Assembly: GCA_036497085.1 (NCBI GenBank)
Contig: DASXKA010000187.1
Coordinates: 1 to 57,132 of the forward strand
Length of the DNA: 57,132 nucleotides
Origin: Steroidobacteraceae bacterium
Lineage (GTDB): Bacteria > Pseudomonadota > Gammaproteobacteria > Steroidobacterales > Steroidobacteraceae
Direction: 5' to 3'
A program made the translations under genes and the position numbers. The notes under the pieces were generated by a model. The model saw only the letters and a program-made list of their open reading frames with translations, was not told the origin of the DNA and ran no database searches. Numbering within the stretch: position 1 is the stretch's first letter; every line of letters begins with the position of its first letter. Below, in pieces: positions 8,001 to 28,378 of this stretch.

Positions 8001-8984
8001 TTGAACCGCGACGCGACCTTCACCCCGGCTCCCCGGCTTACCGCGGCGCTTTGCCGCTGGTTGCTGCTCGCGTGCTCGCTGTTGGTGCCGGACCTCGCCG
8101 CGGCCGAGCCAGCGCCTTCCGCCCCGGCCCGAATCGATCTCGACGCCTTCGACGCCATGAAGAAGAGCGTCGCCCTTCCTGACGGCGAGACGCTCGCGTA
8201 CCTCACGCTGGGGGATCCGGCCGGTACACCGGTCGTGATGATTCACGGCTACACCGACAGCGCGCGCGACTGGGTGCCGCTCGTCCCGTACCTCGCGCCG
8301 GGCCTCAGGCTCATCCTGGTCGATCTGCGCGGCCACGGCCGCTCGGGCAAGCCCGAGTGCTGTTATACGCGGGTCGACTTCGCATACGACATCAAGCTGC
8401 TGCTCGATGCACTGAATATCGAGCACGCCGACATCGTCGGCCACTCGCTCGGCAGCATCATCGCGCAGACATTTGCGGAAGTCTGGCCGGAGCGCACCGG
8501 GCGGGTGGTGCTGATCTCATCGAGCGGGGGGCACCGCCCGGGCGCAGCGCCGCCGGCACCGAAGTTCGACTACGCGGCGGCCATCCGCGCGCTCAAGGAT
8601 CCTATCGACCCCGAGTCGCAGTTCATGCTCGACTGGTGGTCGTGTCCCACTCCGGTCGACCCCGATTTTCTGCGTCGCCAGCGCCAGGACGCGGCGGCGA
8701 TTCCGCTGCGGGTGTGGCTCGCCGTCCTCGACCAGGGATTGATAGACACGGACCTGCAGCGCACGCTCCCGCGGCTCAAGGCGCCGACGCTGCTCATATG
8801 GGGCGGGGCCGACCCCCTCATGGAGGAGGACGTGCGGCAGACACTGCGCGAGGCGTTGCCGCAGGCGCAGGTGAAGATATTCCCGGGTCTTGGGCACAAC
8901 CCGTTCTGGGAGCAGCCCGCGCAGTGCGCGCGGGCGATCAATGAGTTTCTGACGGCGGCGCCGTCGGGGAGGGGCAAGACATGA
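8001..8984 (+). CDS. exported alpha/beta-fold hydrolase
   Basis: TTG is the first possible start. Signal peptide ...LLLACSLLVPDLAAAEP. HGYTDS oxyanion region, nucleophile elbow GHSLGS, C-terminal GLGHNPFWE His block. Confidence 0.8.
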   Translation: MNRDATFTPAPRLTAALCRWLLLACSLLVPDLAAAEPAPSAPARIDLDAFDAMKKSVALPDGETLAYLTLGDPAGTPVVMIHGYTDSARDWVPLVPYLAPGLRLILVDLRGHGRSGKPECCYTRVDFAYDIKLLLDALNIEHADIVGHSLGSIIAQTFAEVWPERTGRVVLISSSGGHRPGAAPPAPKFDYAAAIRALKDPIDPESQFMLDWWSCPTPVDPDFLRRQRQDAAAIPLRVWLAVLDQGLIDTDLQRTLPRLKAPTLLIWGGADPLMEEDVRQTLREALPQAQVKIFPGLGHNPFWEQPAQCARAINEFLTAAPSGRGKT

Positions 8985-11389
8985 AATCCAACGGATCCCG
9001 GCACGAATCGAGGCATACGCTCCTGGCGGCGCGCACACTGGGCACGCTGGCGGCAGGCGTCGCGGCGGCGGTGGTGCTCGCAGTCGCGGCACCCGCGCTG
9101 GCCCAGGAGCAGTCGCAGAAGCAGGCTGAGACCAGCGCCGAACCCGGCGGCGAAGTCGCGACCATTATCGTCAGCGCGCGCAAGCGCGCGGAGTCGATCG
9201 CGGAGGTGCCAACCAGCATTACGGCCTTCACCGCCGAGACCATCAAGGACTACAACGTTCAATCGTTCGCCGATTACGCCACCAAGACGCCCGATCTGAC
9301 CTTCACCTACGGTGGTGGAGCGACCGGCTTCGCGGATTCGCGCACCGTCTCGGTGCGCGGTATCACCGGTCAAAACCTGTTCGGGACCGCGGGCGCTACC
9401 GGCTTCTACATAGACGATACGCCCGTGCCGGGGTCGATCGATCCGCGTGTGGTCGACCTCGCCAGCATCGAGGTCCTGAAGGGCCCACAGGGAACGCTCT
9501 ATGGGGAGAGCTCGCTCGGCGGCAACGTACGCCTCATCACCAGGGCGCCGGACACCGGCAACTCGGGTCTCGGCTATATGTACCAGGTGGGCGCAACCTC
9601 GGCCGGCGGCAGCCCGGATGGCGGCGGCGATCTGGTCGGGAACATCGTGCTGGTGCCCGGCACGGCGGCGCTGCGCTTCGTGGCGTTCGCCAACTGGGAC
9701 GCCGGCTATCTGAACCGCAGCTTTCCCACCTTGAGCAGCGGTCCGGGCGGGGGCGATCCCTTCGCGTCGGTGCCGCGGACCAGCAAGGGCGACCAGGGAC
9801 AGGTACAGACGCTCGGCGGCTCGGCGGCGCTGCTGGTGCACGCGACCGACCAGCTCGACATCAAGCTGCGGGTGATGTTCCAGGACTCCTACGACAAGGG
9901 CTTCCCGGCAACCTTCGCGCCGCTGCCGCAGTTCACGCCCATCTACACCCTGGACCGGGCCTTCGACGTTCAGCCGTGGGCGTCGGACAGCTGGACCATG
10001 CCGACCCTCGACTTGAAGTACTCGGGCTCCGGTTACCAGATCGTATGGGCCAACAGCTTCTTCTACCGTCACACCCACGACGTCGAGGATTCGAGCTACG
10101 GCACGCAGCAGGTCCTCACCGGCTCCTTCTACGGGGTGGCGGGCTTGCCGGCGCAACCGTATCTGTGGGTCGGCGAACGCTTTCACGACCAGGTGGCGAG
10201 CGAGGCGCGCATCTCCTTCGACCCGGTCCGCAACTGGAGCGGAACATTCGGTGTGTTCTATTCGAACACGCACACCCGCTTCACGATCCCGCCGACCTAT
10301 GCGCAGGGACTGACCAACGCCACCTCCTTCGGGGCGCCCGCGGAGAGTGTGTGTGGACCGAATCCCTGCCCGCCGGATGAGATCTGGACGCAGACCAACC
10401 CCGGCACCGAGGAGGACAAGTCGATCTTCGGCGAGGCCTACTGGAAGTTCGCGCCGCAGTGGACGCTGACCCTCGGCGGCCGCCAGTACTGGCTCGACCA
10501 GACCACCGACTATACCGCGGACGGTTTCCTCAACTTCGGCCAGACGGCGAGCGCACCGCAGTCCAACAGTGAGTCGGGCTTCAACCCGAAGGTCGCACTC
10601 TCCTGGCAGGCAACGGAAGCCACGATGGCGTACGCCTCGGCCTCGAAGGGATTCCGCGCCGGCGGCGCGCAGGCGAACTTCCCCGGCTGCTCGCTGCCGA
10701 GCCTCTCGGTGGACGCGATCACGCACATCCGCTCGGACACGCTGTGGACCTACGAAGTTGGCGCCAAGACGCAACTACCCTCGATGCTCATCTCGGCGGC
10801 GGCCTACGACATCGAGTGGAAGGACGTGCAGCAGCAAGTGGCTCTGGTATGCGGGTTCTACGCCCAGGTGAATGGCAACAAGGCGCGCGTGCGTGGCGCC
10901 GAGCTCGAGGCCAGCGGGCGCCTCATGCCGGGGCTGCAGTTCCGTCTGGGACTCGGCTACGAGGACACGGACATGACCGATCCGGGGAATCTCGCCCTCT
11001 TCGGCGTGACTTCCGGCACCCGCGTTTCCGGAGTCCCGGACTTCACCGGCTCCGCGGGCCTGGTCTACACGCAGTCGCTGACGACTGACACTCAGGGCTT
11101 CGTCTCGGCTGACTACAGCTACCAGGGCAACGCCATCTCGCTGCTGGTCGGCGGGGGCGGCGCGGAGGCGACACGACCGGGCTTCTCGCTCGTCAACCTG
11201 CGCTTCGGCGTCGACTGCGGTGACACCGAGGTCTCGCTCAACGTTCACAACGTGTTCAATGCCAAGCCGAACCTGGGCGATATCGGCTATATCGGTTACG
11301 CGCAGCTGAACGCAGCCGGTGGCGTGATCCCCCAGGTGGCGACTCTGCAGCCGCTCACCGTACTGCTGCGGGTGAGCAAGTCCTTCTGA
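8981..11389 (+). CDS. TonB-dependent receptor
   Basis: ATGA overlap with the hydrolase stop. Long signal peptide, plug start IIVSARKRAESIAEVPTSITAF, 802 aa, terminal ...RVSKSF aromatic residue. Confidence 0.9.
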   Translation: MKSNGSRHESRHTLLAARTLGTLAAGVAAAVVLAVAAPALAQEQSQKQAETSAEPGGEVATIIVSARKRAESIAEVPTSITAFTAETIKDYNVQSFADYATKTPDLTFTYGGGATGFADSRTVSVRGITGQNLFGTAGATGFYIDDTPVPGSIDPRVVDLASIEVLKGPQGTLYGESSLGGNVRLITRAPDTGNSGLGYMYQVGATSAGGSPDGGGDLVGNIVLVPGTAALRFVAFANWDAGYLNRSFPTLSSGPGGGDPFASVPRTSKGDQGQVQTLGGSAALLVHATDQLDIKLRVMFQDSYDKGFPATFAPLPQFTPIYTLDRAFDVQPWASDSWTMPTLDLKYSGSGYQIVWANSFFYRHTHDVEDSSYGTQQVLTGSFYGVAGLPAQPYLWVGERFHDQVASEARISFDPVRNWSGTFGVFYSNTHTRFTIPPTYAQGLTNATSFGAPAESVCGPNPCPPDEIWTQTNPGTEEDKSIFGEAYWKFAPQWTLTLGGRQYWLDQTTDYTADGFLNFGQTASAPQSNSESGFNPKVALSWQATEATMAYASASKGFRAGGAQANFPGCSLPSLSVDAITHIRSDTLWTYEVGAKTQLPSMLISAAAYDIEWKDVQQQVALVCGFYAQVNGNKARVRGAELEASGRLMPGLQFRLGLGYEDTDMTDPGNLALFGVTSGTRVSGVPDFTGSAGLVYTQSLTTDTQGFVSADYSYQGNAISLLVGGGGAEATRPGFSLVNLRFGVDCGDTEVSLNVHNVFNAKPNLGDIGYIGYAQLNAAGGVIPQVATLQPLTVLLRVSKSF

Positions 11390-12060
11390 GGCGCGGGAAC
11401 TGAAAGGCGGCGGCGGGAAGCTCTACGCGCCCGCCGCGCGCCGCGCCCGGGCGCGCCGGCCGAGCCCTCGGCCCAGGCGCGCAGCAACCTCAGCTGCAGC
11501 GAAAGCTGCTCGATCTGCGCGCGCGCGGGCCAGTCGCCGATGTTGGCGACCGCACTCGCGGTGAGCCCGTTGATGAAGGTCACGAGCGAGCGCAGCACGT
11601 GCTCGCGGGTGGCGGCCGGCCAGGGCGACCACTCCGGCCAGCAGCGCGCGAGGCAGCGCTCGAAGAGTCGCAGGTACTCGCGATGCACCCAGGCGTTGAT
11701 GCGCTTCAGGCGCCGGTCCGCCGAGACCTGTCCCCAGAACGTGGTCCAGAAGGCGCACTCGACGCGCCGCTGCGCATCGAGCGGCAGCGCCTCGGCGAGC
11801 AGCGTCAACAGGTCGGGGGGCGCACCGACCGGTGCCGGGCGCGACAGCCGCTCCTCGATCCGGCGCAGGATGAGGCGCAGCGCCGCGATGATGATGTCCT
11901 GCTTGCTATCGAAGTAGTGCGCCAGCATGCCGGTGGTGTAGCCCGCCTCGCGGGCGATACGCACCATGCTCGCCTGATCGAAGCCGTGCTCGGCCACAAC
12001 CCGGCAGGCGACGAGCGCGATCTCGTCACGACGCTGCGCGTGGTCGACGATCTTGGGCAT
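11296..12060 (-). CDS. TetR-family transcriptional regulator
   Basis: N-terminal HTH RRDEIALVACRVVAEHGFDQASMVRIAREAGYTTGMLAHYF. Starts 9 nt after the NCS1 stop. A ~60-aa Arg-rich tail runs 94 nt into the convergent TBDR 3' end. Confidence 0.8.
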   Translation of the reverse strand: MPKIVDHAQRRDEIALVACRVVAEHGFDQASMVRIAREAGYTTGMLAHYFDSKQDIIIAALRLILRRIEERLSRPAPVGAPPDLLTLLAEALPLDAQRRVECAFWTTFWGQVSADRRLKRINAWVHREYLRLFERCLARCWPEWSPWPAATREHVLRSLVTFINGLTASAVANIGDWPARAQIEQLSLQLRLLRAWAEGSAGAPGRGARRARRASRRRLSVPAPQKDLLTRSSTVSGCRVATWGITPPAAFSCA

Positions 12061-12069
12061 CGCGCGATC

Positions 12070-13509
12070 CTAGCCCGGCGCGCCCACGCGATCGTCGGGA
12101 TCGAGGCCGACGTCGGCGGCTGCCGCCCGTCGCCGGTCGTGTTCGAGATCCAGCGAGCGACAGCTGAGCAGGTAGACCGCGGCTGCTACCGGCAAGCCCA
12201 CCAGCATGGCGATGTCGGCCCTGCCGAGAGCGCGCGCCACCGGGCCGGTGTAGATCTCGGTGCTGAAGAACGGAATCATCACGATGAAGCCCGTGAGGTA
12301 GGCGGTGAGGCCGCGCCAGTTCCAGTGGCCGTACATGCCGCGGGAGTTGAAGATCTCCCGGATCGAGTAGTGCCCTTTGCGCACCAGATAGAAATCCACC
12401 AGGTTGATCGCGGTCCAGGGCGTGAACAGGTAGAGCAGCAGCGCGAGGTAATCCTGGAAGCGGGCCACGAAATTGCCGGAGGACTTCAGGGCGAGCACCG
12501 TGCTCGCGAGCAGCGCGACGCCGAGGCTCGCCAGGCGCTTGGCCGCCGTGCACCTGAGCGGCCGCACGGTATCGGCAACTGAGAGCAGCGTGAGCGAGGC
12601 GCCGTAGAAGTTGAGGGAGGTGATCGTGACCAGGCCGAGCAGGGCACCGGCGATCAGCACTCTGCCGAGGCCCGGAATGACCGCATCGGCGGCGCGCTCC
12701 ATGGCGGCGGCCACGTCCAACTGCGGCGCCAGCGCCGCCGCCACCGTTCCGACCAGCATCATCCACGCGCCGCCGATGAAGGCGCCGAGGTAGGTCCACC
12801 AGAACGACGCGCGCACGCCGACGTCGCGTGGCAGGTAGCGAGAGTAGTCCGACACGTAGATCGACCAGCTGAGCTGATAGGAAGCCGCGGCGAACACCTG
12901 TGCGAGGAAGGGCACGGCGCGAAAGCCGCCGGCGTCCCACTGCACCGCCGGGAAGCGCAACGTGACCAGGCCGCCGAGCGAGAACACCGTGAGAATCGCG
13001 ATCATGAGGTAGGCGAAGGCGCGCTGAGCGCGGTGGATCTGGTCGTAGCCGACCGCGGCGAGGCTCACCGCGACCAGCGCAAACGCGACGATGGCCCCGG
13101 CGGAGGTCGCGGAGATCGCCGGCGTCAGCTGGTGGAGCGCCTGTGCGGCGAGCACCTGGTTGAAGGCGTTGTAGCCGACGTAGGCGACGAGCGCGACGGC
13201 CCAGACGAGCAGCGCCCCCGTGTAGCCGAACTGCGGACGGGACTGGATCATCTGCGGTAGCCCGAGCTGCGGCCCCTGCGTCGAATGGAACGCCATGAAA
13301 AAGGTGCCGAGCGCGTTGCCGAGCACGACCGCAACGCTGGTCCAGAGCAGATTGCCGCCGAGCGTGATGCCGAGCACCCCGACGGCGAGCGTGGCGAGGT
13401 GCGCGTCGCCCGAGAACCACACGGGCCAGAGGTGCCAGACCTTGCCGTGCCGCTCGGCAAGCGGCACGTAGTCGATCGAACGCGTCTCGATGAGCCTGCG
13501 TTTAGCCAT
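12070..13509 (-). CDS. NCS1-family (purine-cytosine/nucleobase-type) permease
   Basis: 479 aa with ~12 hydrophobic segments. N-terminal SIDYVPLAERHG and FHSTQGPQLGLPQMIQSRPQFG blocks are typical of cytosine/purine permeases. Confidence 0.8.
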   Translation of the reverse strand: MAKRRLIETRSIDYVPLAERHGKVWHLWPVWFSGDAHLATLAVGVLGITLGGNLLWTSVAVVLGNALGTFFMAFHSTQGPQLGLPQMIQSRPQFGYTGALLVWAVALVAYVGYNAFNQVLAAQALHQLTPAISATSAGAIVAFALVAVSLAAVGYDQIHRAQRAFAYLMIAILTVFSLGGLVTLRFPAVQWDAGGFRAVPFLAQVFAAASYQLSWSIYVSDYSRYLPRDVGVRASFWWTYLGAFIGGAWMMLVGTVAAALAPQLDVAAAMERAADAVIPGLGRVLIAGALLGLVTITSLNFYGASLTLLSVADTVRPLRCTAAKRLASLGVALLASTVLALKSSGNFVARFQDYLALLLYLFTPWTAINLVDFYLVRKGHYSIREIFNSRGMYGHWNWRGLTAYLTGFIVMIPFFSTEIYTGPVARALGRADIAMLVGLPVAAAVYLLSCRSLDLEHDRRRAAAADVGLDPDDRVGAPG

Positions 13510-13610: not shown

Positions 13611-14015
13611 CTACTGCCTGGCGATCACTTCCAGGCCGGCTTCCGGCCTCGTCATGACGTAACTGCAGGCCCCGGGGGTACGTCTCACGGTGGCGACCGC
13701 CTCGGCGTCGCTGCCGGCGACGACCGGCGGATTGATGCCGTCCCGGAAGGACTTCTTGATCCAGGTGACCGAATACTTCGCGGCCGTCATCTTCAGGATC
13801 CGGTCGAGGAACAGGGCCTGCGCGGCGCTGTTGTCGATGGGAACCAGCTTCACCGCTCCGGCGAACTGCTTCTCGCCGACGAACAGGTCGCGCACGTCGG
13901 CGGCCGTGATCGACGGCTGCACGTTGCAGATGATGTAAAGCTCGTCGGCATGGGCTGCGCTGCCGGCCGTGGCGAGCAGCGTCGCGAGCAGAAGCTTTAC
14001 AGGGATTCGCGTCAT
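13611..14015 (-). CDS. small exported PstS-like (type-2 periplasmic binding fold, half-size) protein
   Basis: Signal peptide MTRIPVKLLLATLLATAGSAAHA. SITAADVRDLFVGEK...W.KK.F..GINPP...TPGACSYV resembles the PBP_like_2 pattern, but the protein is only 134 aa. Confidence 0.6.
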   Translation of the reverse strand: MTRIPVKLLLATLLATAGSAAHADELYIICNVQPSITAADVRDLFVGEKQFAGAVKLVPIDNSAAQALFLDRILKMTAAKYSVTWIKKSFRDGINPPVVAGSDAEAVATVRRTPGACSYVMTRPEAGLEVIARQ

Positions 14016-14032
14016 GCCTGACTGGTGCGCCT

Positions 14033-15481
14033 TCAGAAGCGGATGGCGTATTGGACGAGCGCTTCGCCGTAGGTCCGTATGATCCGGTCGGTGAAGCTGG
14101 TCTTGGCAAATTCCATCTTGAGGGCGGACGACAGATCGATGTCGAATCGCACGCCGAGCGCCTCGCGATTGTAGGAATTACCGTTGATCTGAGCGGCGAA
14201 GTACGGGTCCGACTGCTGGAACGATCCGCGCTCGTAACGCGCGTACGGAGTGTAGCGGCCGCCGCGGTAGCCCATCTGGATGAAGCCGGCATCGCTGTGG
14301 TGCGAGCCGGTATTCCCCGTGAGATCCGTGTTGTCGAAGAAATGCAGCTCCGCGATGTCTTCCCAGCGGTCGGTGTCGTAAACGGCGTAGGCGCCGTAGC
14401 TCTTCACCCGGGTGAAGTAGGGGCTGACCTGCGGAAACGCCGTCGGCGTCGGGTCCTGGTCCTCGATGCGCGTCTGGAAAGCATCGACCCCGACCTTCAG
14501 GCCGTCGAGCACCCCGCCCGGCAGCAGGCCCAGATTGCCACCGACGATCGCGCTGCCGCGGGACACGCCCGCGTTATTCATGTCGAGGATGCCGTTGAAG
14601 ATCCGCTGACTGTTGCCGACATAGGCGTCATACGTGACTTTCATGTCGCCAAGGCGCTCCGATCCCGTGAGCCACAGTCCCACCGTATGCGCCGGCATGA
14701 TTCCGCCGTGATCCTCGAACTCGATGAAGCGCGGGCGGCGCAGGCCGATCGCGATCCATTGCCCGTGGTGGAAGGCGGTGTTGTAGAAGCCGTACGGCGT
14801 ATGAAAACGCCCGACCCATATGGTGGCTGAATCCGAGAACTGGTAGCCGATCTGCGCGCGCTCGAGGTCGACGCCGACCGTGCCGTCCGAGCCAACCTCG
14901 AAGTTCAGCTCGAACAGCGCACGGGTGCGCGCACCGAGCCGCGGCGTCAGGAAGAAATCCAGCTCCGCTATATCGGCTCCGCGGTAGTTGGGAAACTCGG
15001 CGTTGTGCGTGCCGACGCCGACGTCCGCAAAGCCGTGCATCGGCATGCCGGTGTCCTCAGCGCGCTGCCAGGCGTTGGCGGCCATCTGGGCAATCGTCTG
15101 CTCGAGTTGAGTCAGACGTGAGGCCTCGGCGGTCGCCGGGGCCGCCGGCGGCGCGCCCGCCGCCACGGCCGGCGCAGGCGCGGCGGGAGCGGGGGACGCG
15201 GGAGCAGCCGGGACCTGGGCGGCGGCCGGTGCTGCAGGCGTGCTGCCCGGGGTGGTTGCGGGTGTCGTCGACTGCTGAGCGGCGCGGGCCTCGAGGTCGT
15301 GAACCTTCTGCGACAACTCGCGGATCATCTGCATGCTCTGCTCGAGCTCTTTGCGAAGCTCGGCGATCTGATCGGCCTCGGTGTCCGCCGCGGCGGGCAC
15401 AGAATGACCAAGGCAGGCGACCAGCAGCACGCAGGGCCAGGAGCGGACGCGCGCGACACGCAGGTTTCCCTTGATACCCAT
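14033..15481 (-). CDS. outer-membrane beta-barrel (porin-like) with N-terminal coiled coil and Ala/Pro linker
   Basis: GAGGT RBS and a signal peptide. Heptad segment ADQIAELRKELEQSMQMIRELSQKVHDLEARAAQQ, then an Ala/Pro-rich linker. The body alternates Tyr/Gly-rich strands and ends ...LVQYAIRF. Confidence 0.65.
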   Translation of the reverse strand: MGIKGNLRVARVRSWPCVLLVACLGHSVPAAADTEADQIAELRKELEQSMQMIRELSQKVHDLEARAAQQSTTPATTPGSTPAAPAAAQVPAAPASPAPAAPAPAVAAGAPPAAPATAEASRLTQLEQTIAQMAANAWQRAEDTGMPMHGFADVGVGTHNAEFPNYRGADIAELDFFLTPRLGARTRALFELNFEVGSDGTVGVDLERAQIGYQFSDSATIWVGRFHTPYGFYNTAFHHGQWIAIGLRRPRFIEFEDHGGIMPAHTVGLWLTGSERLGDMKVTYDAYVGNSQRIFNGILDMNNAGVSRGSAIVGGNLGLLPGGVLDGLKVGVDAFQTRIEDQDPTPTAFPQVSPYFTRVKSYGAYAVYDTDRWEDIAELHFFDNTDLTGNTGSHHSDAGFIQMGYRGGRYTPYARYERGSFQQSDPYFAAQINGNSYNREALGVRFDIDLSSALKMEFAKTSFTDRIIRTYGEALVQYAIRF

Positions 15482-15489
15482 GAAAGCAG

Positions 15490-16065
15490 CTACCTCAGTG
15501 TGAAGCGCAGCCCTGCCGCTGCGTCGGTTGCGATGAGCGTCCCGTGCTCATCGAAGCGGACGATGCGCGAGTCGTGGATCACGTGCTCGTCCATCTTCCA
15601 GAATTCGAAGCCAAGTTGACGCGCGATGCGCTGCACGTCGGCGGGTGTGCCTACGAGGAAGTGCCAGTTCTCGCGCGTCAGATGCCGGGTGCGGCGGTAC
15701 TGATGCCAGGCGGCGGGATCGTCGGCGTCGGGGTCGTAGCCGACGACGATGAACTCGGCCCTGAGGCCGCGCCGGTCGAAATCCTGTTGCAGCTGCTGGA
15801 GGTCACGGATCGTGACCGGGCACACGCGATGACAGGTCGCGTACGCCATGGTGAGCACGACCGCCCGGCCCTGCATCGCGTGCAGATCGAAGGCCCGGCC
15901 GAGATCGTCGCGCCAGCTCGCGGGCAGATCGCCGAGCCGCATCGGCGGAAGGTCGGAGTGTCCGGACGCGCTAGCCACGGTCGCCATTGCCGCCAGCAGC
16001 GCAAGCAACGCCCGACCAGCCGCCCGCGGCGGCGCGCGTCGTGCGTCGACAGATCCCGTCTGCAT
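15490..16065 (-). CDS. Sco1/SenC-family thioredoxin-fold copper chaperone / thiol-disulfide protein
   Basis: ORF 15490..16137 trimmed to ATG 16065, which gives the signal/anchor RALLALLAAMATVASA. CxxxC motif MAYATCHRVCP. Downstream EHVIHDSRIVRFDEHG His block. Confidence 0.75.
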   Translation of the reverse strand: MQTGSVDARRAPPRAAGRALLALLAAMATVASASGHSDLPPMRLGDLPASWRDDLGRAFDLHAMQGRAVVLTMAYATCHRVCPVTIRDLQQLQQDFDRRGLRAEFIVVGYDPDADDPAAWHQYRRTRHLTRENWHFLVGTPADVQRIARQLGFEFWKMDEHVIHDSRIVRFDEHGTLIATDAAAGLRFTLR

Positions 16066-16167
16066 GCGAGCGACCCCCCACTCGTGGTGGGCAAAGTATG
16101 TGCACAAGCGAGCTATGTCAAACGCAACCGTCGTCACATGCCGTGCTGCAGCGCGGGCAGGCAGGTC

Positions 16168-17727
16168 TCAGTTCGCAGAAGCGGCGAGCGCTTCGAAGTA
16201 CGCAACGAGCGCCTGCCGCTCGGCATCGGGGAGATTCAATCCGAGCGGCATGCGGTGTGCGCCCGCTTCGGGCGACAGCCGGAAGCGGATCTCGTCCTGC
16301 AGTGTGGTGCGGGGCGCGGAGCGGTCGCGCAGCCGCTGTGCGAGCAGTTTCGGATTCGAGAAGGGGATGAGCGGGGCGGCGCCGGTCTCGTGGCAGCCGA
16401 CGCACACCTGCAGCGCCGGCGGCGGCGCCGCTGAGCCGTCGCCGCTCGCCTGAGGCCGGTCACTCAGCGCGAGCGCCGCGGGGGAGGGAGCCACCGTGCC
16501 TGCGGTACTCCCGGCGCGCGCAAGCGCCGCCCGGCTGCGTCGCTTGAGGTAACTGCAGTAACGATCGCCGTCGGCCGGAGTCGCGGAGTAGCTCAGCGTC
16601 TCGAGCGCGCGGTCTCCCGGGGCGATGGCCGCCAGCAGTGAGGTCCGCAGCGGCAACGCAGCGGCAGGCGGCCGGGTGAAGTCGTAGGTGCCGCTCTCGA
16701 GAGCGAGCGTCCAGCTGCGCGTCGGAATACCGAGCGCCGACTCGGCCACGAAGCGCAGCGGCAGCAGGGTATCGGACCCGGCGGGGGCGGGTGCCGTAAC
16801 GCCCGAGGCAAGCCGCTGCGCCTTGAGCTGCGCCTCCCGGGCATTTCCGCCGGCCGTGTCGCGCGCGAAGCGCTCGAACGCCGCGCGCTGCGTGCGCCAG
16901 AGCGTTTCCGGATAGAAGTCGGCGAGCGGCGCGCAGCCGCCGTCGGCGACTCCGAGGAGCGCGTACCGATAGACTGCAAAGGCCGGCTGGTGCATGAGAC
17001 GCGCGGCGATCGCCTGAAACTGGAGGTTGCCGAGATCGGCCGAGAGCTCCGCGTTCGGCGGCTCACGCCGGACGGCCGCGTACTGAGCTCCCGCGCCCGG
17101 GCGGAAGGTGCGGGCGTCAGCGTAGCGGGCGACATCCAGCAGGTGGCGGTAGCGTGGGTGGCTCGGCTGTTGTGCGAGAAAGCGCTCGAGTCCCGCGCGC
17201 TCGGGTTCCGAGAGAGTGGCGCCGTAGCGCTCGCCGTAGGCACCTGGCCACAGCGGAAAGCTATCCCAGACCGGGTGCGGCGGATTCCCGTGGCAGCGCA
17301 TGCAACGCTCGGGGTTGGTTTCCGAAACCCGCACGGCGGCGGCGCCCGCCGGCCGGTCGGGGAACTCGAGTTCGCGCAGGCGGAACTCGCGGGCGACGAT
17401 GTCGAACTCCAGGGTCTCGAGCACGCGAAAGCCGCGCTGCGCTATGTCGCCGTTGAAGGTCAGAACGAAGCGCGCGTCCGGGCCGTAGAGGATGACGCGC
17501 GGATTGTCGAAACTCGCTGCCTGCAGGCTGCGGCTGTCGAACATCAGGGCGTAGTTGCGACGTTGCGCCTCGGGGAGCGCGACGAGCAGCTCCTCGACCG
17601 TGCCAACGTCGCCTGTCCGGATGAGGGCCTGCAGCGATTCGAACCCGAAGCTGTCGGCGTGCACGGCGGGAATAGCCAGCGCGAGCAGCAGCGGCAGGTA
17701 CGGTATGCGGCGCACGGTAGCGATCAT
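16168..17727 (-). CDS. exported di-haem c-type protein; C-terminal class-I cytochrome c domain, large unassigned N-domain
   Basis: ORF 16168..17769 trimmed to ATG 17727 (MIATVRRIPYLPLLLALAIPAVHA signal peptide). CMRCH is encoded at 17290-17304 and CVGCH at 16390-16404. The distal HRMPLG provides a Met ligand. Confidence 0.7.
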   Translation of the reverse strand: MIATVRRIPYLPLLLALAIPAVHADSFGFESLQALIRTGDVGTVEELLVALPEAQRRNYALMFDSRSLQAASFDNPRVILYGPDARFVLTFNGDIAQRGFRVLETLEFDIVAREFRLRELEFPDRPAGAAAVRVSETNPERCMRCHGNPPHPVWDSFPLWPGAYGERYGATLSEPERAGLERFLAQQPSHPRYRHLLDVARYADARTFRPGAGAQYAAVRREPPNAELSADLGNLQFQAIAARLMHQPAFAVYRYALLGVADGGCAPLADFYPETLWRTQRAAFERFARDTAGGNAREAQLKAQRLASGVTAPAPAGSDTLLPLRFVAESALGIPTRSWTLALESGTYDFTRPPAAALPLRTSLLAAIAPGDRALETLSYSATPADGDRYCSYLKRRSRAALARAGSTAGTVAPSPAALALSDRPQASGDGSAAPPPALQVCVGCHETGAAPLIPFSNPKLLAQRLRDRSAPRTTLQDEIRFRLSPEAGAHRMPLGLNLPDAERQALVAYFEALAASAN

Positions 17728-17797
17728 TCTGGCGACGGGGCGCAGCGCAGATGCCCCAGGATTCCCCATTAGTGTTCAGGGAGTCACGGTGCCGCGA

Positions 17798-17819
17798 TGT
17801 TACATCGTGTTACTTGACA
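17798..17819. promoter_or_regulatory. direct repeat TGTTAC-N4-TGTTAC abutting a TTGACA hexamer in the divergent promoter region
   Basis: Read directly: TGTTAC at 17798-17803 and 17808-17813 (10-bp phasing), TTGACA at 17814-17819. No convincing -10 box at 17+/-1 spacing. Confidence 0.25.
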
Positions 17820-17941
17820 AAGCGTGACCAGGGTCTCGACCACTACCCCCTGAAGGTGCTATTCGATCCCTTGTTTGACGGGCAGTTATCCGGCCCGCGT
17901 CGCGTGGGCCGGGCGTAACGGAACGCACCTCGGGATTGTCT

Positions 17942-19906
17942 ATGCTTGCAGTGGGTGAAATCGCACCCTCGGACATATTGCCGGCGGCCGGGGCGGCCGC
18001 TCGGTCATCGGCTGAACCCGCAGCCCGGACGGTCGTGGGTGCGCGCGGTTTCAAGCTCACGGGCATCACCGAGCGGCTGATCGCCCTGCAGTTTCTCGCA
18101 GTCGTGGTGCCGATCGCCTTCGTGCTGCTCGCACAGATGGTGGCGGACGCACGACGTGCGGCCGCGCTGGAAGCGTCGCGCCCGTTGCGCACGCTCGCCA
18201 ACGACGCACGCGCCGACTACCGCACCTTCACCAATGGTGCCGCCGATGCGGTCGATACCGGAACGCTCGGCCGGCAGTCGGCCGAGGCACTGAAGAGCGC
18301 TGCCGACCGGCTGCAGCGGCTGGCCGTCCGCGGTGGCGAGCCGGCGCTCGGCGATGCTGCCAGACAGGTGGGGGACCTCGCCGCCAGGATCGGCAATGGC
18401 GCGACACTCGACAAGCTGATGGGGCTGCGGGCGCAGATCGCCGAAGCCGACCGCGCGACGCGCACCATCGATGAGGACTTCGAGCGGCGCGATGCCGCGG
18501 CGACTCTGGATGCGGTCGACTCGGCGCGTGTGCAGAAGCGCGCCGTGACGGCGGCGTTGTTCATCAGCCTGATCCTGTCGGTGGTGTTCGTACTGGCGAC
18601 GCGGCTACGCCTCAAACGCCAGCTCGAGGCCGACGCCGCCATCGAGCGGCGCAGGAGGGCTGAGCTCGAGACCATCTCGATCCGCTTCGGCATGGCGACA
18701 CGCGCGGCACACGCCGGCGTATACGAAGTGCAGGAGGGCGACGGCAGCGTGTGGTGGAGCGACACGATGCACGAGCTCTACGGTCAGCCGCCGCAGGGCT
18801 TCCGTCCGACACTCGAGGGCTGGCTCGAGCTCATCTACCCGGCCGACCGCGCCGCCGCGGAAGCGGCCATGACCGGCGCGATGCGCGAGGGCCGCCCGCT
18901 GCATTCGCAGCACCGGGTCGCACGGGCCGACGGCAGCTTCCGTCATATCGAGTCGGTGGGCGCCGTAGTCGGCGACTCTGCCGATGGCACGGCGCGGGTG
19001 GTCGGCATCGACCTCGACGTCACCGAGCGGGTCGCAGCCGCATCACGCGAAGAGACGCTGCAGCATCAGCTGCGCGATGCATCGCGGCAGGCGGGCATGG
19101 CCGACGTGGCGACCAGCGTGCTGCACAACGTCGGCAATGTGCTCAACAGCGTCAACATCTCGGCCAACCTCGTGAGCGAAAGCCTGAAGCGCTCGCGCGT
19201 TCAAGGGCTCGAGCAGGTGGCGGCGCTCTTGAAGGAGCACGAGGGTGATCTCGGCGCCTTCGTGGCTCACGATCAGCGCGGCCGGGTGCTGCCGGTTTAC
19301 CTGGCGGAGCTCTCGCGGCACGTCAACGCGGACAACCAGGCCGCATTGCGCGAGCTCGACTCGCTGCGCAACAACATCGACCACATCAAGGACGTCGTGA
19401 CCACGCAGCAGCGCTACGCCAAACTGGGTGGTTTCGCCGAGCGCATCGACGTGCGCCACCTGGTCGATGAGAGCGTGCGCATCAACGGCCACGCGCTCGA
19501 GCGGCACGGCGTGAAACTCGAGCGCGAATTCGGCCAGGTCGCGGAGATCGTGGTCGACAAGCACAAGGTGCTGCAGATCGTGGTGAACCTGCTGCGCAAC
19601 GCGAAGGACGCCTGCCAGGAGTACACCGACCGGGAGAAGCTGGTCCGGATCCAAATCGAGAAGTGCGCGCTCGGTGTGCGCATCTCGGTCGCCGACAACG
19701 GCGCCGGCATCACCGCCGGGAACATGAGCCGCATCTTCACGCACGGCTTCACCACCAAGAAAGCGGGCCACGGATTCGGCCTGCACAGCGGCGCGCTGGC
19801 AGCCAAGGAGATGGGCGGAGTGCTGCGCGCCGAGAGTGCCGGTGCCGGGTGCGGGGCCACGTTCGTGCTGGAGCTACCCCTGAAGCCCCCCGAGAGATCC
19901 AGATGA
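17942..19906 (+). CDS. membrane sensor histidine kinase (2 TM + periplasmic domain, PAS, HK core)
   Basis: ATG 17942 (TTG 17936 also possible). TM segments LIALQFLAVVVPIAFVLLAQMV and AVTAALFISLILSVVFVLA. PAS (WWSDTMHELYG...). H-box ATSVLHNVGNVLNSV, N-box NLLRNAKDA, G-boxes DNGAGI and GHGFGLH. Confidence 0.85.
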   Translation: MLAVGEIAPSDILPAAGAAARSSAEPAARTVVGARGFKLTGITERLIALQFLAVVVPIAFVLLAQMVADARRAAALEASRPLRTLANDARADYRTFTNGAADAVDTGTLGRQSAEALKSAADRLQRLAVRGGEPALGDAARQVGDLAARIGNGATLDKLMGLRAQIAEADRATRTIDEDFERRDAAATLDAVDSARVQKRAVTAALFISLILSVVFVLATRLRLKRQLEADAAIERRRRAELETISIRFGMATRAAHAGVYEVQEGDGSVWWSDTMHELYGQPPQGFRPTLEGWLELIYPADRAAAEAAMTGAMREGRPLHSQHRVARADGSFRHIESVGAVVGDSADGTARVVGIDLDVTERVAAASREETLQHQLRDASRQAGMADVATSVLHNVGNVLNSVNISANLVSESLKRSRVQGLEQVAALLKEHEGDLGAFVAHDQRGRVLPVYLAELSRHVNADNQAALRELDSLRNNIDHIKDVVTTQQRYAKLGGFAERIDVRHLVDESVRINGHALERHGVKLEREFGQVAEIVVDKHKVLQIVVNLLRNAKDACQEYTDREKLVRIQIEKCALGVRISVADNGAGITAGNMSRIFTHGFTTKKAGHGFGLHSGALAAKEMGGVLRAESAGAGCGATFVLELPLKPPERSR

Positions 19907-21855
19907 GCAGCGCGACCTCACAGCTGCGGCGACGATTACTCGTCATCGACGACAACCCGGCCATCCACGAGGACTTCAAGAAGATTCTCCCCTCCGGCAC
20001 CGGCGCGCAGGACAGCTCCGCGCTGTTGGCGGCCGAGCTGCTGCTGCTCGGTGAACCGAAGGCGCTCGCACCACGGCCAACCTTCGAAATTGACACCGCG
20101 CTGCAGGGCCAGGCGGGCGTCGAGTGCGTCAAGCAGGCCCTGGCCGAGGGCCGGCCGTACGCGATGGCGTTCGTCGACATGCGCATGCCCCCGGGTTGGG
20201 ACGGGCTCGAGACGATCCAGCACCTGTGGGCGGTCGACCCGCACGTGCAGGTAGTCATCTGCTCCGCGCACAGCGACTACGACTGGACGGAGGTGGTGGC
20301 GCGACTCGATCACTCCGACAGGCTGCTGGTCGTCAAGAAGCCGTTCGAGGCGATCGAGGTGCTGCAGTGCGCCAACGCGCTCACCCGCAAGTGGGACAAC
20401 GAGCGCATCCTGCGCCAGCAGGTCGAGCAGCTCGGGGAGCTGGTTGAGGCGCGCACTCAGGGGCTCGAGGCCGCCAACAAGCAGTTGCGGCATCTCGCCA
20501 CCCACGATTCGCTCACGGGTCTGCCGAACCGGGTGCTGCTCGACGACCGCCTCACCCAGGCGGCAGTCCACGCCGAGCGCGACGGCCACTCCTTCGCCGT
20601 CGCAATGTTCGATCTCGACCGCTTCAAAGTCGTCAATGACTCCTTCGGTCACCGCGCCGGCGACCAGCTCATCAAGGAGGTGGCTCACCGCCTCCAGGGC
20701 GTCGCCCGCAGCACCGACACCGTGGCACGCCTCGGCGGTGACGAGTTCCTGTTCATCATGAACCGGCTCGCACAGCGTGACGACGCGGTGCAGATCGCGC
20801 GCCGCGCGGCCGAGGCGCTGGCGCAGCCGATCCGGATCGGTGACGTGGACATTCACGCCTCGGCGAGCATTGGCATCGCCATGTTTCCCGGCGACGGCAA
20901 GGGGATCGACACCCTGATGGCCAACGCCGACGCGGCCATGTACTGCGCCAAGCAGCGTGGCCGCAACAACATCCAGTGTTACGCCTCGGGCATGAATGCC
21001 ATCACCCAGGACAAGGTGAAGCTCGAGAGCGACCTGCATGCGGCACTTACGCTCAAGCAGCTCGAGCTGCACTTCCAGCCGAAGATCGAGACCCTGAGCG
21101 GCGCCATTCACGGCGCCGAGGCGCTGGTGCGCTGGCGGCACCCGGAGCGGGGGCTGGTTCCGCCGGGCGAGTTCATTCCGCTGGCGGAGGCCTGCGGCCT
21201 GATCGATAAGATCGGCGCGTGGGTGGTGAACGAGGCGTGCCGGCAGGCACGCGCCTGGCAGCTGCAGGGACTGCCGTCGCTGCGCGTGGCGGTGAACCTC
21301 TCGGCGCTGCAGTTCCGAAACGGCAACCTGCACCAGATGATAGCCGAGGCCCTGCGGGCCGCCGAGCTGGAGCCCCGTTTCCTCGAAGTAGAGATCACCG
21401 AGAGCGCGCTGATGAGCGATCCGGAGGAGTCGGTGAAGATCCTCGAGCAGCTCAGTCGCATGGGCGTCGTGGTGTCGGTCGATGACTTCGGCACCGGCTA
21501 CTCGAGCATGGCGTATCTGCGCCGCTTCCCGATCGACAAGCTGAAGATCGATCGCACCTTCATCGCCGAGCTCATCTCACGCGCCGACGACGCCTCGATC
21601 GTGCGCGCCATCGTGTCGCTGGCGCACAACCTGCGCCTCAAGGTGGTCGCCGAAGGCGTCGAGACCACGGAGCAGCTCGAGCTGCTGCGCTCGCTCGGCT
21701 GCGACCAGTATCAGGGCTTCTGTTTCAGCCCGGCGGTGCCGGCGCCGCAGTTCGCGGAGCTGCTGGTCGAGTCACGCAAGAAGGCGGAGGCCGAGACGGA
21801 CGCCATGGCCGAGCGCACTCACAGCAAGCTCTCCTTCTTTCGCCCGCGCGCCTAG
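19903..21855 (+). CDS. response regulator REC-GGDEF-EAL (c-di-GMP synthase/phosphodiesterase)
   Basis: ORF 19663..21855 trimmed to ATG 19903 (ATGA overlap with the kinase stop). REC LLVIDDN...FVDMRMP. I-site RSTD five residues before GGDEF. EAL blocks EALVRW, EVEITES, DDFGTGYSS, KIDRTF. Confidence 0.9.
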   Translation: MSSATSQLRRRLLVIDDNPAIHEDFKKILPSGTGAQDSSALLAAELLLLGEPKALAPRPTFEIDTALQGQAGVECVKQALAEGRPYAMAFVDMRMPPGWDGLETIQHLWAVDPHVQVVICSAHSDYDWTEVVARLDHSDRLLVVKKPFEAIEVLQCANALTRKWDNERILRQQVEQLGELVEARTQGLEAANKQLRHLATHDSLTGLPNRVLLDDRLTQAAVHAERDGHSFAVAMFDLDRFKVVNDSFGHRAGDQLIKEVAHRLQGVARSTDTVARLGGDEFLFIMNRLAQRDDAVQIARRAAEALAQPIRIGDVDIHASASIGIAMFPGDGKGIDTLMANADAAMYCAKQRGRNNIQCYASGMNAITQDKVKLESDLHAALTLKQLELHFQPKIETLSGAIHGAEALVRWRHPERGLVPPGEFIPLAEACGLIDKIGAWVVNEACRQARAWQLQGLPSLRVAVNLSALQFRNGNLHQMIAEALRAAELEPRFLEVEITESALMSDPEESVKILEQLSRMGVVVSVDDFGTGYSSMAYLRRFPIDKLKIDRTFIAELISRADDASIVRAIVSLAHNLRLKVVAEGVETTEQLELLRSLGCDQYQGFCFSPAVPAPQFAELLVESRKKAEAETDAMAERTHSKLSFFRPRA

Positions 21856-27727: not shown

Positions 27728-28378
27728 TCAGCGGACCGCGGGCTTGGCGCGCAGCAGCGCGAGCGGATTCGGCCCGGGCTCGGCGACCCTCACCAGAGTA
27801 TTGCGGTCGCGGTGCATGAAGGGCTCCTCGCGCCCGTGCACCTTGAGCACGGTGTCGAGCACGTAGCTCCAGCTGCCGTCCGGGTTGAAGACGACCTCGA
27901 TCCGATAGGATTCAGTGCGGAACGCATATTCGAGGAACGCGGTGGAGCAGATGCCGTACTCGGTCTGGCCGCGCTGCGCCGTAAGCACGAGCTCGGTGGC
28001 ATCCGCTGCCGCGTGCCCGGCGGCGATCGCCACCTGGCCGCGGGGGATGCTGAGTGTCTGCATCACCAGCCCCGTGGCGGGCTCCCACAGCCAGTAGCCG
28101 GTCTGATCGTGGAAGGTAGCGTCCTCATCGGACGCGAGGATGCGAGTGTGATAGCGCAGGCCGTAGAAGAGCTGCGGACCATTCGACTGGGCGTCGATCG
28201 GTTGCAGGTCGATGCGCTCGCTGTACTCGCGGCGCTGCGGCCCCTCGGGCTTCGGATTGATGTCGATGCCCGCACGGCTCTCCCAGGTGCCCGCCAGGCG
28301 GCGCAGCGGTCCGAGGTTAGCGAGGGTGTCGGGGCTCGCTTCCTGTTCGGTGAATACGTCTTCGGGAAAGGTGCTCAT
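27728..28378 (-). CDS. nitrobindin-like haem-binding beta-barrel (DUF1794/THAP4-type) protein
   Basis: LGPLRRLAGTWES..GIDINP, YGLRYHT, DQTGYWLWEP blocks. 216 aa. Confidence 0.65.
   Translation of the reverse strand: MSTFPEDVFTEQEASPDTLANLGPLRRLAGTWESRAGIDINPKPEGPQRREYSERIDLQPIDAQSNGPQLFYGLRYHTRILASDEDATFHDQTGYWLWEPATGLVMQTLSIPRGQVAIAAGHAAADATELVLTAQRGQTEYGICSTAFLEYAFRTESYRIEVVFNPDGSWSYVLDTVLKVHGREEPFMHRDRNTLVRVAEPGPNPLALLRAKPAVR

Follow-up and report, generated by a model that had tools for sequence, protein, structure and literature searches.

The window analysed here is a stretch of 57,132 nt, read on the forward strand, of contig DASXKA010000187.1 (assembly GCA_036497085.1) from a Steroidobacteraceae bacterium. 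Four minus-strand open reading frames (ORFs), termed G1 to G4, together span 13611–17769 and encode a two-haem protein, a Sco-like protein, a predicted outer-membrane barrel and a small PstS-like protein. Divergent from them lie the genes of a sensor histidine kinase and of a REC-GGDEF-EAL response regulator. Across genomes, the four genes and one specific sensor domain, that of this kinase, stay linked through many rearrangements. The cluster is real, conserved across many uncultured soil bacteria and uncharacterised, and it appears to be a hitherto undescribed system for sensing at the envelope and not an operon for copper delivery. The main features of the locus are as follows.

16168–17769 (−), G1 ORF of 533 amino acids (aa); likely ATG at 17727, giving 519 aa
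16168–17727 (−), G1, exported; N-terminal alpha/beta domain, haem 1, helical domain, C-terminal class-I-like cytochrome c domain
17290–17304 (−), CMRCH in the translation, haem-1 attachment motif (C142, C145, H146)
16390–16404 (−), CVGCH in the translation, haem-2 attachment motif (C442, C445, H446)
16249–16251 (−), codon of Met493 of G1
15490–16137 (−), G2 ORF; likely ATG at 16065, giving 191 aa
15490–16065 (−), G2, Sco/SenC-like thioredoxin-fold protein of 191 aa
15820–15834 (−), CHRVC in the translation of G2
15574–15585 (−), HVIH in the translation of G2
14033–15481 (−), G3, 482 aa, start as in the ORF; signal peptide, coiled coil, Ala/Pro linker and putative barrel ending in YAIRF
15278–15385 (−), coiled coil of G3 (aa 33–68)
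15131–15277 (−), Ala/Pro-rich linker of G3 (aa 69–117)
13611–14015 (−), G4, 134 aa, start as in the ORF; exported, ~110 aa when mature, single-lobe PstS-like
18035–19906 (+), sensor histidine kinase; first transmembrane segment, ~135-aa helical periplasmic domain, second transmembrane segment, PAS_3, H-box, HATPase
18056–18655 (+), shared sensor domain; periplasmic motif Y..F.NG..DAVD.G.L
19903–21855 (+), REC-GGDEF-EAL response regulator of ~650 aa; GGDEF, RxxD, EAL and DDFGTG motifs intact

The start of G1 was placed at the ATG at 17727 by the lengths of its homologues (515–520 aa), and that of G2 at the ATG at 16065 to match the 191-aa orthologues in loci L006 and L007. With this start the gap between G1 and G2 is 102 nt, and with the long G2 ORF it is 30 nt; a first-pass annotation, made by reading the window alone, had put it at 102 nt at most. 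G2 and G3 are separated by 8 nt (15482–15489) and G3 and G4 by 17 nt (14016–14032). Judged by eye, all four N-termini carry Sec-type signals (basic n-region, hydrophobic core, AxA-like site), the candidate cleavage sites being ...AVHA/DS, ...ASA/SG, ...PAAA/DT and ...AAHA/DE. The four minus-strand ORFs, both CXXCH motifs, the two short spacers and the export signals were confirmed as first annotated, and the two motifs lie exactly 300 residues apart in the translation, as claimed.

On the plus strand, the kinase ORF opens at 17936, and the GTG at 18035, which fits the homologues, is the probable start. The ATG of the regulator overlaps the stop codon of the kinase (ATGA, 19903–19906). Taken from the mechanical ORFs, which open at 17936 for the kinase and at 19663 for the regulator, both proteins come out ~35–80 residues longer than comparison with the homologues supports.

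Linkage of the gene set to one sensor domain

Gene neighbourhoods were surveyed with profile hidden Markov models for G1–G4 and single-sequence probes for the signalling domains, using six-frame ORFs of each fetched locus. The G1-anchored sample comprised 34 species-level genomes, all of them metagenome-assembled genomes (MAGs), from the Steroidobacteraceae, other Gammaproteobacteria, Burkholderiaceae, other Betaproteobacteria, Oligoflexia and Polyangiaceae. G1–G4 were found together with the sensor domain, defined as an N-terminus homologous to the first ~200 residues of the window kinase, in 19 of the 34 genomes. A further six had the sensor domain with an incomplete set of the four genes, and in three of these the contig ends inside the cluster. 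When the sensor motif served as the anchor in metagenomes, 64 of 80 mostly short contigs contained at least one of G1–G4, and G4 was directly upstream of the sensor gene in 26 sensor-anchored contigs.

The gene set was kept through at least seven gene orders in the Gamma- and Betaproteobacteria and, in part, in the Oligoflexia. Orders and sub-modules recorded include the following (HK, histidine kinase; RR, response regulator; MCP, methyl-accepting chemotaxis protein).

Divergent layout: the window
G1>G2>G3>G4>HK>RR on one strand: L071, L073 and L075, with G4-to-kinase spacers down to 0–12 nt
G2>G3>G4>MCP>G1: L031, L038, L108 and L110
G2>G3>G4>MCP>HK>RR opposite G1
G1 and inverted G2, then G3>G4>MCP: Burkholderiaceae
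HK>RR>G2>G3>G4
Sub-module of G1, HK and RR alone: L056
Sub-module of G3, G4 and MCP alone: L114
Sub-module of G3, G4 and G1 alone, with no sensor gene nearby: L033

The shared sensor domain gave no match in Pfam or the PDB, and an NCBIfam scan of the N-terminus of the kinase was likewise empty above threshold. It also heads methyl-accepting chemotaxis proteins in related clusters (phmmer E values of 1e-36 to 1e-46), and in some loci (L018, L020 and L022) the kinase and chemoreceptor versions occur together. Its conserved periplasmic residues are Tyr, Phe, Asn and Asp.

The first-pass annotation had described the four genes as a self-contained module and had mentioned their divergent pairing with a cyclic di-GMP (c-di-GMP) two-component system in passing. 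The pairing proved real and, far from a side remark, is now the core of the finding. Self-containment did not hold up, as the most conserved partner of the four genes is the periplasmic sensor domain of the kinase, found in chemoreceptors as well. The four genes co-occur widely outside the window genome, a result that leaves the earlier reading of them as a unit standing. Their layout had been called unlike that of cox/cco, nos, sox or Sco-PCuAC loci, and this is so within ~8 kb on either side; no cox, cco, nos, PCuAC, CopA/B/C/D or multicopper oxidase genes were present among the scanned neighbours. In the literature, no description of the gene combination and no characterised system of this composition were found.

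A different arrangement was seen in myxobacterial (Polyangiaceae-type) MAGs, where a G1 homologue lacking the cytochrome c domain (L035, 9189–11119; L036, 9237–11119) follows a CheX-like gene and is next to a HAMP-Hpt-HATPase protein. No Sco, porin or G4 takes part in this link to chemosensory genes.

Properties of the exported proteins

The first CXXCH motif of G1 was present in all 113 family representatives. The C-terminal cytochrome c domain was kept in 88 of the 113, being missing from about a fifth of those sampled, and every copy of the domain had the second CXXCH and the Met-Pro pair. Since the first motif is universal and the second, with Met-Pro, occurs wherever the domain exists, the motifs are not there by chance. 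Across 112 representatives, the near-invariant or invariant positions were the first CXXCH, P76-R77, S65, S67, E104, W154, W160, G162, Y164, R192 and Y193. No conserved His or Met that could serve as the sixth ligand of haem 1 was found among the family representatives, nor did the family alignment contain a conserved His/Met/Cys cluster for a copper site. The C-terminus has the layout of a class I cytochrome c, with C442, C445, H446 and M493-P494 invariant and helices modelled over 439–516. Its matches to known profiles were below the cut-offs: Cytochrome_CBB3 at aa 454–524 of the 533-aa ORF (21.6 bits, Pfam cut-off 27) and Cytochrom_C (15.6 bits, cut-off 21.3); a c-552 from the PDB matched at an E value of 0.55.

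Outside the cytochrome c domain, G1 had no relative in Pfam, NCBIfam or the PDB sequences, the last searched with a profile built from 36 homologues. The AlphaFold2 (AF2) model, built without haem, had a mean predicted local distance difference test (pLDDT) score of 74 and a predicted template modelling (pTM) score of 0.68. It has four parts, namely an N-terminal alpha/beta domain (~29–121), the haem-1 helix, a long helical region and a small C-terminal helical domain. Foldseek of this model against the PDB returned nothing at E < 1, a weak negative since the protein's own cytochrome c domain was missed too. A new fold is possible on the basis of the model. In an exhaustive HMMER search the family comprised 3,211 clusters (50% identity) at E values of 1e-3 or better, 1,144 of them at 1e-30 or better, and all ten distant clusters that were looked up were unnamed metagenome proteins. 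By sequence, G1 is a member of a large unnamed protein family. The first-pass annotation could not name a family for the N-terminal ~400 aa, and none emerged from Pfam, NCBIfam, the PDB sequences or Foldseek. A match to a characterised family such as MauG/CCP (CCP, cytochrome c peroxidase) or a thiosulfate/sulfite dehydrogenase would have counted against that annotation; no such match appeared, and the annotation's reading survives on this point.

Several identities for G1 or its parts were rejected. There was no CCP_MauG match in Pfam, NCBIfam or the PDB sequences or by Foldseek, and for the TsdA/SoxAX type there was only a chance-level SoxX match to the cytochrome c domain (E value of 2). 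An sCache_heme protein (DUF3365) was set aside for want of a DUF3365 match in Pfam. C265 and C391 are present in ~77–86% of family representatives and are not strictly paired, which excludes them as a universal disulfide or haem ligand. The pattern in G1 resembles that of two-haem periplasmic enzymes, in which an electron-transfer haem with His/Met ligation is paired with a haem whose distal side is open or unusual. From the conserved residues, the distal side of haem 1 is predicted to be open or unusual and lined by Ser, Arg, Tyr and Trp.

G1 and Sco also occur as one polypeptide, in the order G1-Sco in P0086 and P0088 and Sco-G1 in P0421; in the latter, Sco is N-terminal and the G1 part lacks the cytochrome c domain. 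An apparent fusion of NAD_binding_9, DUF6356 and G1 (P0371) is probably a gene-calling artefact and was left unused.

By sequence, G2 is a member of the Sco family, as first annotated. It matched the Pfam SCO1-SenC profile (PF02630) with 58.8 bits, well over the cut-off of 22.8 (E value of 7e-16), and the Bacillus subtilis Sco structures 1XZO/1ON4 at an E value of 4e-7. The Cys-Cys-His ligands coincide with those of B. subtilis Sco (1XZO): CHRVC falls on CETIC of the latter, and the His of QVIHQ is matched by the second His of HVIH. In orthologues these ligands were conserved as C102 (57/57), C106 (57/58) and H188 (55/55). The orthologues have a further invariant His, and a His is often found inside the motif, in the unusual form CHR[VI]C.

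The window G3 itself had no Pfam match and nothing above threshold in NCBIfam, and its profile gave nothing significant against the PDB sequences. Its homologues in other clusters matched Porin_O_P (PF07396), a family of phosphate-selective porins, those of L024 (30.6 bits) and L090 (29.2 bits) above the cut-off of 20.9 and those of L021 and L023 just under it; all four match the G3 profile at E values of ~1e-76 to 1e-85. By transitive homology through these cluster-linked proteins, G3 is probably a remote OprO/OprP-type barrel, in line with the porin proposed in the first-pass annotation. The C-terminal Phe and a composition free of Cys and rich in Gly and aromatic residues are in keeping with an outer-membrane protein; a crude amphipathicity scan was weakly supportive and too coarse for a strand count. 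The coiled coil, the Ala/Pro linker and the C-terminal ...YAIRF had been annotated correctly and precede or close what is predicted to be the barrel. The coiled coil is absent from shorter homologues, so this extension is optional.

At the sequence level, G4 gave nothing above threshold in Pfam or NCBIfam and nothing significant in the PDB sequences. With its AF2 model (pLDDT of 73), the top 25 Foldseek matches were all PstS-type phosphate-binding proteins, including PhoX of X. citri, with probabilities of 0.80–1.00 and E values of 1e-3 to 1.4e-1. The model covers one lobe, about half of each target (TM-score 0.43–0.60 by query, 0.19–0.32 by target), and does not amount to the two-lobe type II periplasmic binding fold; the half-size PstS-like fold that had been proposed for gene 4 agrees with this. 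In hhalign a single motif was aligned, RTPGACSYV of G4 with RLPGAIGYV of Escherichia coli PstS. The invariant residues of G4 include C30, C117 and the motif RTPGACSY. In the region corresponding by spacing to the phosphate loop of PstS, G4 reads D-N-S-A-A-Q, with D61, N62, A65 and Q66 invariant; hhalign left this region unaligned, and the equivalence is presumptive. Some database copies of G4 carry the name ‘phosphate ABC transporter substrate-binding protein’.

Certain loci contain two copies of G4, of which one lies within a G2-G3-G4-G1 operon and the other immediately precedes the kinase gene. Copies in such loci were located at the following positions.

L021, 7142–7558
L023, 6884–7288 and 9073–9840
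L082, 5812–6216
L090, 5600–6061

A proposed envelope sensing system and its alternatives

Most simply, the linkage can be read as the exported proteins providing the sensor domain with its input. That G1–G4, the kinase with its REC-GGDEF-EAL regulator and, elsewhere, the chemoreceptor constitute one envelope system coupled to signalling is given a probability of roughly 0.65–0.7. The signalling proteins would be clients of the module and not its transcriptional regulators, because GGDEF-EAL and MCP outputs bind no DNA. G4 is the best candidate for a docking partner, since it habitually adjoins the sensor gene and since PstS and CtpL, described below, provide a precedent. G1 may contact the sensor or act upstream of it, as it is linked to the sensor even where G4 is missing.

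In the mechanism proposed, the OprO/OprP-like barrel of G3 would admit a small, probably anionic solute to the periplasm, where G1 would hold it in a pocket beside haem 1 built from the family-wide Ser, Arg, Tyr and Trp residues. G1 would then oxidise or reduce the solute, with electrons passing through its His/Met cytochrome c domain to or from the respiratory chain, and the Sco-like G2 would serve G1 as a thiol/disulfide partner or copper donor. G4, with or without the solute or its product, would dock on the helical periplasmic domain of the kinase or chemoreceptor, and the output would be c-di-GMP turnover and/or chemotaxis. The odds that the mechanism is right in every step are considered to be even.

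Redox conversion of a small anion by G1 is the more tentative part and is judged less likely than not. It is suggested by the combination of an OprP-like porin with a PstS-like fold, and by a Ser/Arg-rich pocket at an open haem next to an electron-transfer cytochrome domain. The anion theme draws on the Porin_O_P matches of the G3 homologues, the PstS match of the G4 model and the conserved S65, S67, R77, R192 and Y193 of G1. The sole pointers to copper handling are the Sco ligands, and an oxyanion is suggested no less strongly by the porin and the PstS-like protein; copper is not the best-supported theme.

A number of observations weigh against the proposed system. G1 occurred alone in 7 of the 34 genomes, and some kinase-regulator loci (L078, L083, L086 and L097) had none of G1–G4 despite 4–8 kb of flanking DNA. 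Many loci come from related Steroidobacteraceae-like genomes, so that the counts do not represent independent events, and every carrier of the cluster is a MAG or metagenome contig, none being cultured. The ‘no fold match’ result for G1 is weak evidence, coming from a moderate model that lacks haem and with which the cytochrome c domain was not recovered. The porin assignment of G3 is transitive and involves just 60–80 matched positions of the Porin_O_P profile. G4 appears to lack the Ser-Gly-Thr loop of PstS, the equivalent stretch being placed by spacing, and a single lobe, as modelled, cannot enclose a ligand as PstS does. The fold and family resemblances behind the oxyanion idea are remote.

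Most known periplasmic sensing works by direct ligand binding to a Cache domain or four-helix bundle, or through a full-size binding protein borrowed from a transporter. Binding-protein-dependent sensors include TorT-TorS, LuxP-LuxQ and AioX-AioS. For Pseudomonas aeruginosa, recognition of phosphate-loaded PstS by the chemoreceptor CtpL has been described (PMC4926252). As in these systems, the present cluster encodes a protein with a periplasmic binding protein fold, PstS in the case of CtpL, together with a membrane sensor on whose helical periplasmic domain it may act. The differences are that G4 is a single lobe of 134 aa, apparently without the PstS phosphate loop, that there is no ABC transporter here, that the sensor domain is unannotated and that a haem protein and Sco belong to the set. 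OprO/OprP, the phosphate and pyrophosphate porins, and PstS of the Pho regulon provide a likeness in the pairing of an anion-porin family member with a PstS-fold periplasmic protein. Both relationships are very remote, however: the window porin is under the Pfam threshold and has a coiled-coil N-terminal extension, and the locus contains no pstCAB or phoBR and no recognised Pho box.

In work of Eraso and Kaplan from 2000 (listed in PMC12492659), the Rhodobacter Sco homologue PrrC/SenC, encoded with the PrrB/RegB kinase, was reportedly proposed to signal to that kinase. The cluster likewise encodes a Sco-family protein beside a sensor kinase, the Rhodobacter kinase being redox-responsive and a respiratory signal relay having been proposed there. 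In Rhodobacter, however, the partner is a cbb3 oxidase and the regulator binds DNA; in the present cluster Sco accompanies, and is sometimes fused to, an unclassified two-haem protein, and the signalling output takes the form of c-di-GMP and chemotaxis. With cytochrome c peroxidase/MauG and TsdA, G1 appears to share one haem with an open or unusual distal side and another of the His/Met class I type. It differs from them in that no sequence or fold similarity was found, that its N-terminal 400 aa belong to an unnamed family, and that the predicted haem-1 pocket is of Ser, Arg, Tyr and Trp with extra cysteines that are not universal. The sCache_heme modules (DUF3365/Tll0287) are extracytoplasmic CXXCH-haem modules, often stand-alone, that occur with kinases, cyclases and chemoreceptors (PMC12889525). 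G1 is likewise an extracytoplasmic CXXCH-haem module tied to kinases and chemoreceptors; unlike them, it has no DUF3365 match, is about three times their size, contains a second haem domain and is accompanied by Sco, a porin and a mini binding protein.

The strongest alternative is that G1 is a haem-based periplasmic redox, oxidant or gas sensor and not an enzyme. The stimulus would be NO, O2, H2O2 or sulfide bound at haem 1, or else the redox state of the pool of periplasmic cytochromes, reported by the cytochrome c domain; G1, together with the Sco-like protein, would relay it to the kinase or chemoreceptor (energy or oxidant taxis), leaving the porin and G4 as accessories. The lack of a conserved sixth ligand of haem 1 suits this idea, as does the linkage of G1 alone to signalling genes, which are the kinase gene in L056-type loci and genes for CheX and CheA-like proteins in the myxobacterial ones. 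So do the signalling role reportedly proposed for PrrC/SenC and the existence of NO-binding periplasmic c-type-haem modules, namely sCache_heme/DUF3365 (PMC12889525). An electron-transfer cytochrome c domain, on the other hand, is less usual in a gas sensor than in an enzyme. The tight conservation of G3 with G4 and the OprP/PstS flavour of the pair would go unexplained, and neither the G3, G4 and G1 sub-module with no sensor gene nearby (L033) nor that of G3, G4 and MCP without G1 (L114) sits well with such a role. On balance, a sensor role of this kind is judged unlikely.

A copper-handling module is improbable. In such a module the barrel would let copper in and Sco would bind it; G1 would reduce or oxidise the copper or accept it, G4 would be a metal-binding protein, and periplasmic copper would be what the sensor reports. 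In its favour are the invariant Cys-x3-Cys and His of Sco, its extra invariant His, the frequent His in CHR[VI]C and the occurrence of G1-Sco fusions. Nevertheless, the scanned neighbourhoods were devoid of the copper and oxidase genes named above, a conserved His/Met/Cys cluster is missing from G1, the sensor has Tyr, Phe, Asn and Asp at its conserved periplasmic positions and not the His and Met of known copper sensors, and the porin and binding-protein folds are of the anion type. That a catabolic or respiratory module just happens to lie next to signalling genes, uncoupled from them in function, would account for the unrelated neighbours of seven G1 homologues and for the kinase loci without G1–G4, but is very improbable given a linkage that survives at least seven gene orders and two independent anchoring searches, the recruitment of one rare sensor domain into two different output proteins, and G4-to-sensor spacers as short as those of L071, L073 and L075.

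With coupling to signalling as the preferred reading, the cluster is best regarded as a variant form of periplasmic sensing that depends on accessory proteins; a categorically new kind of system is doubtful. What is tied here to one unannotated sensor domain feeding c-di-GMP and chemotaxis is an unnamed haem family of thousands of clusters without a solved relative, a Sco outside oxidase assembly and a half-size binding protein. In its boldest form, which we hold to be speculative, G1 would be the founder of a new fold family of periplasmic c-type-haem proteins and, with Sco, an anion-type porin and a single-lobe binding protein, would define a previously unknown extracytoplasmic sensory class, in which periplasmic redox conversion and not mere binding is the signal, read by a new sensor domain common to kinases and chemoreceptors. 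If the coupling is true, a large ‘hypothetical’ haem family would gain a function, Sco-to-kinase signalling would have a second case, and a tractable system would be available in which soil Gammaproteobacteria turn an envelope redox or anion cue into a motile-sessile decision. The N-domain of G1 and the sensor domain are two new domain families for the domain databases.

The divergent intergenic region and the surroundings

An alignment of 12 loci revealed a conserved non-coding block in the divergent G1/kinase intergenic region, unique in the window.

17768–17840 (no strand assigned), conserved non-coding block

On the G1 strand the block reads TCACGCTTTGTCAAG ... GTAACATC ... CGTGA ... CTGAACAC, and further conserved pieces lie near 17858–17868 and 17932–17950. 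It is conserved as DNA across loci whose proteins share just 56–81% identity, and is probably an operator or an unusual promoter. An RNA leader was rejected, there being no covariation (term of 0.02) and no Rfam match. By eye, a sigma-54 promoter was also rejected (GG-N9-GC is one short of the usual spacing and GG is often GA), as was a Pho box, the second repeat of which is unconserved. A promoter scan found no sigma-70-like sites, and terminator-like sites were at chance level.

No tRNA or Rfam matches were obtained anywhere in the window. A second, larger PAS-GGDEF-EAL protein is encoded at 24126–26936 (+), 2.3 kb downstream of the regulator; it may be part of the conserved neighbourhood, as similar proteins were seen near the cluster in L006, L007 and L009. 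On the far side of G4 are genes for a TonB-dependent receptor (8981–11389, +), a TetR/BetI-type repressor (11296–12060, −) and a cytosine/purine-type permease (12070–13509, −), none of which is conserved beside the cluster in other loci. A THAP4-like (nitrobindin-type) haem-binding beta-barrel is encoded at 27728–28378 (−; Pfam E value of 1e-22), 6 kb from the locus, for which a redox or gas signal is a possible cue. The G+C content at 42001–44000 is 0.625, compared with ~0.68–0.70 elsewhere in the window.

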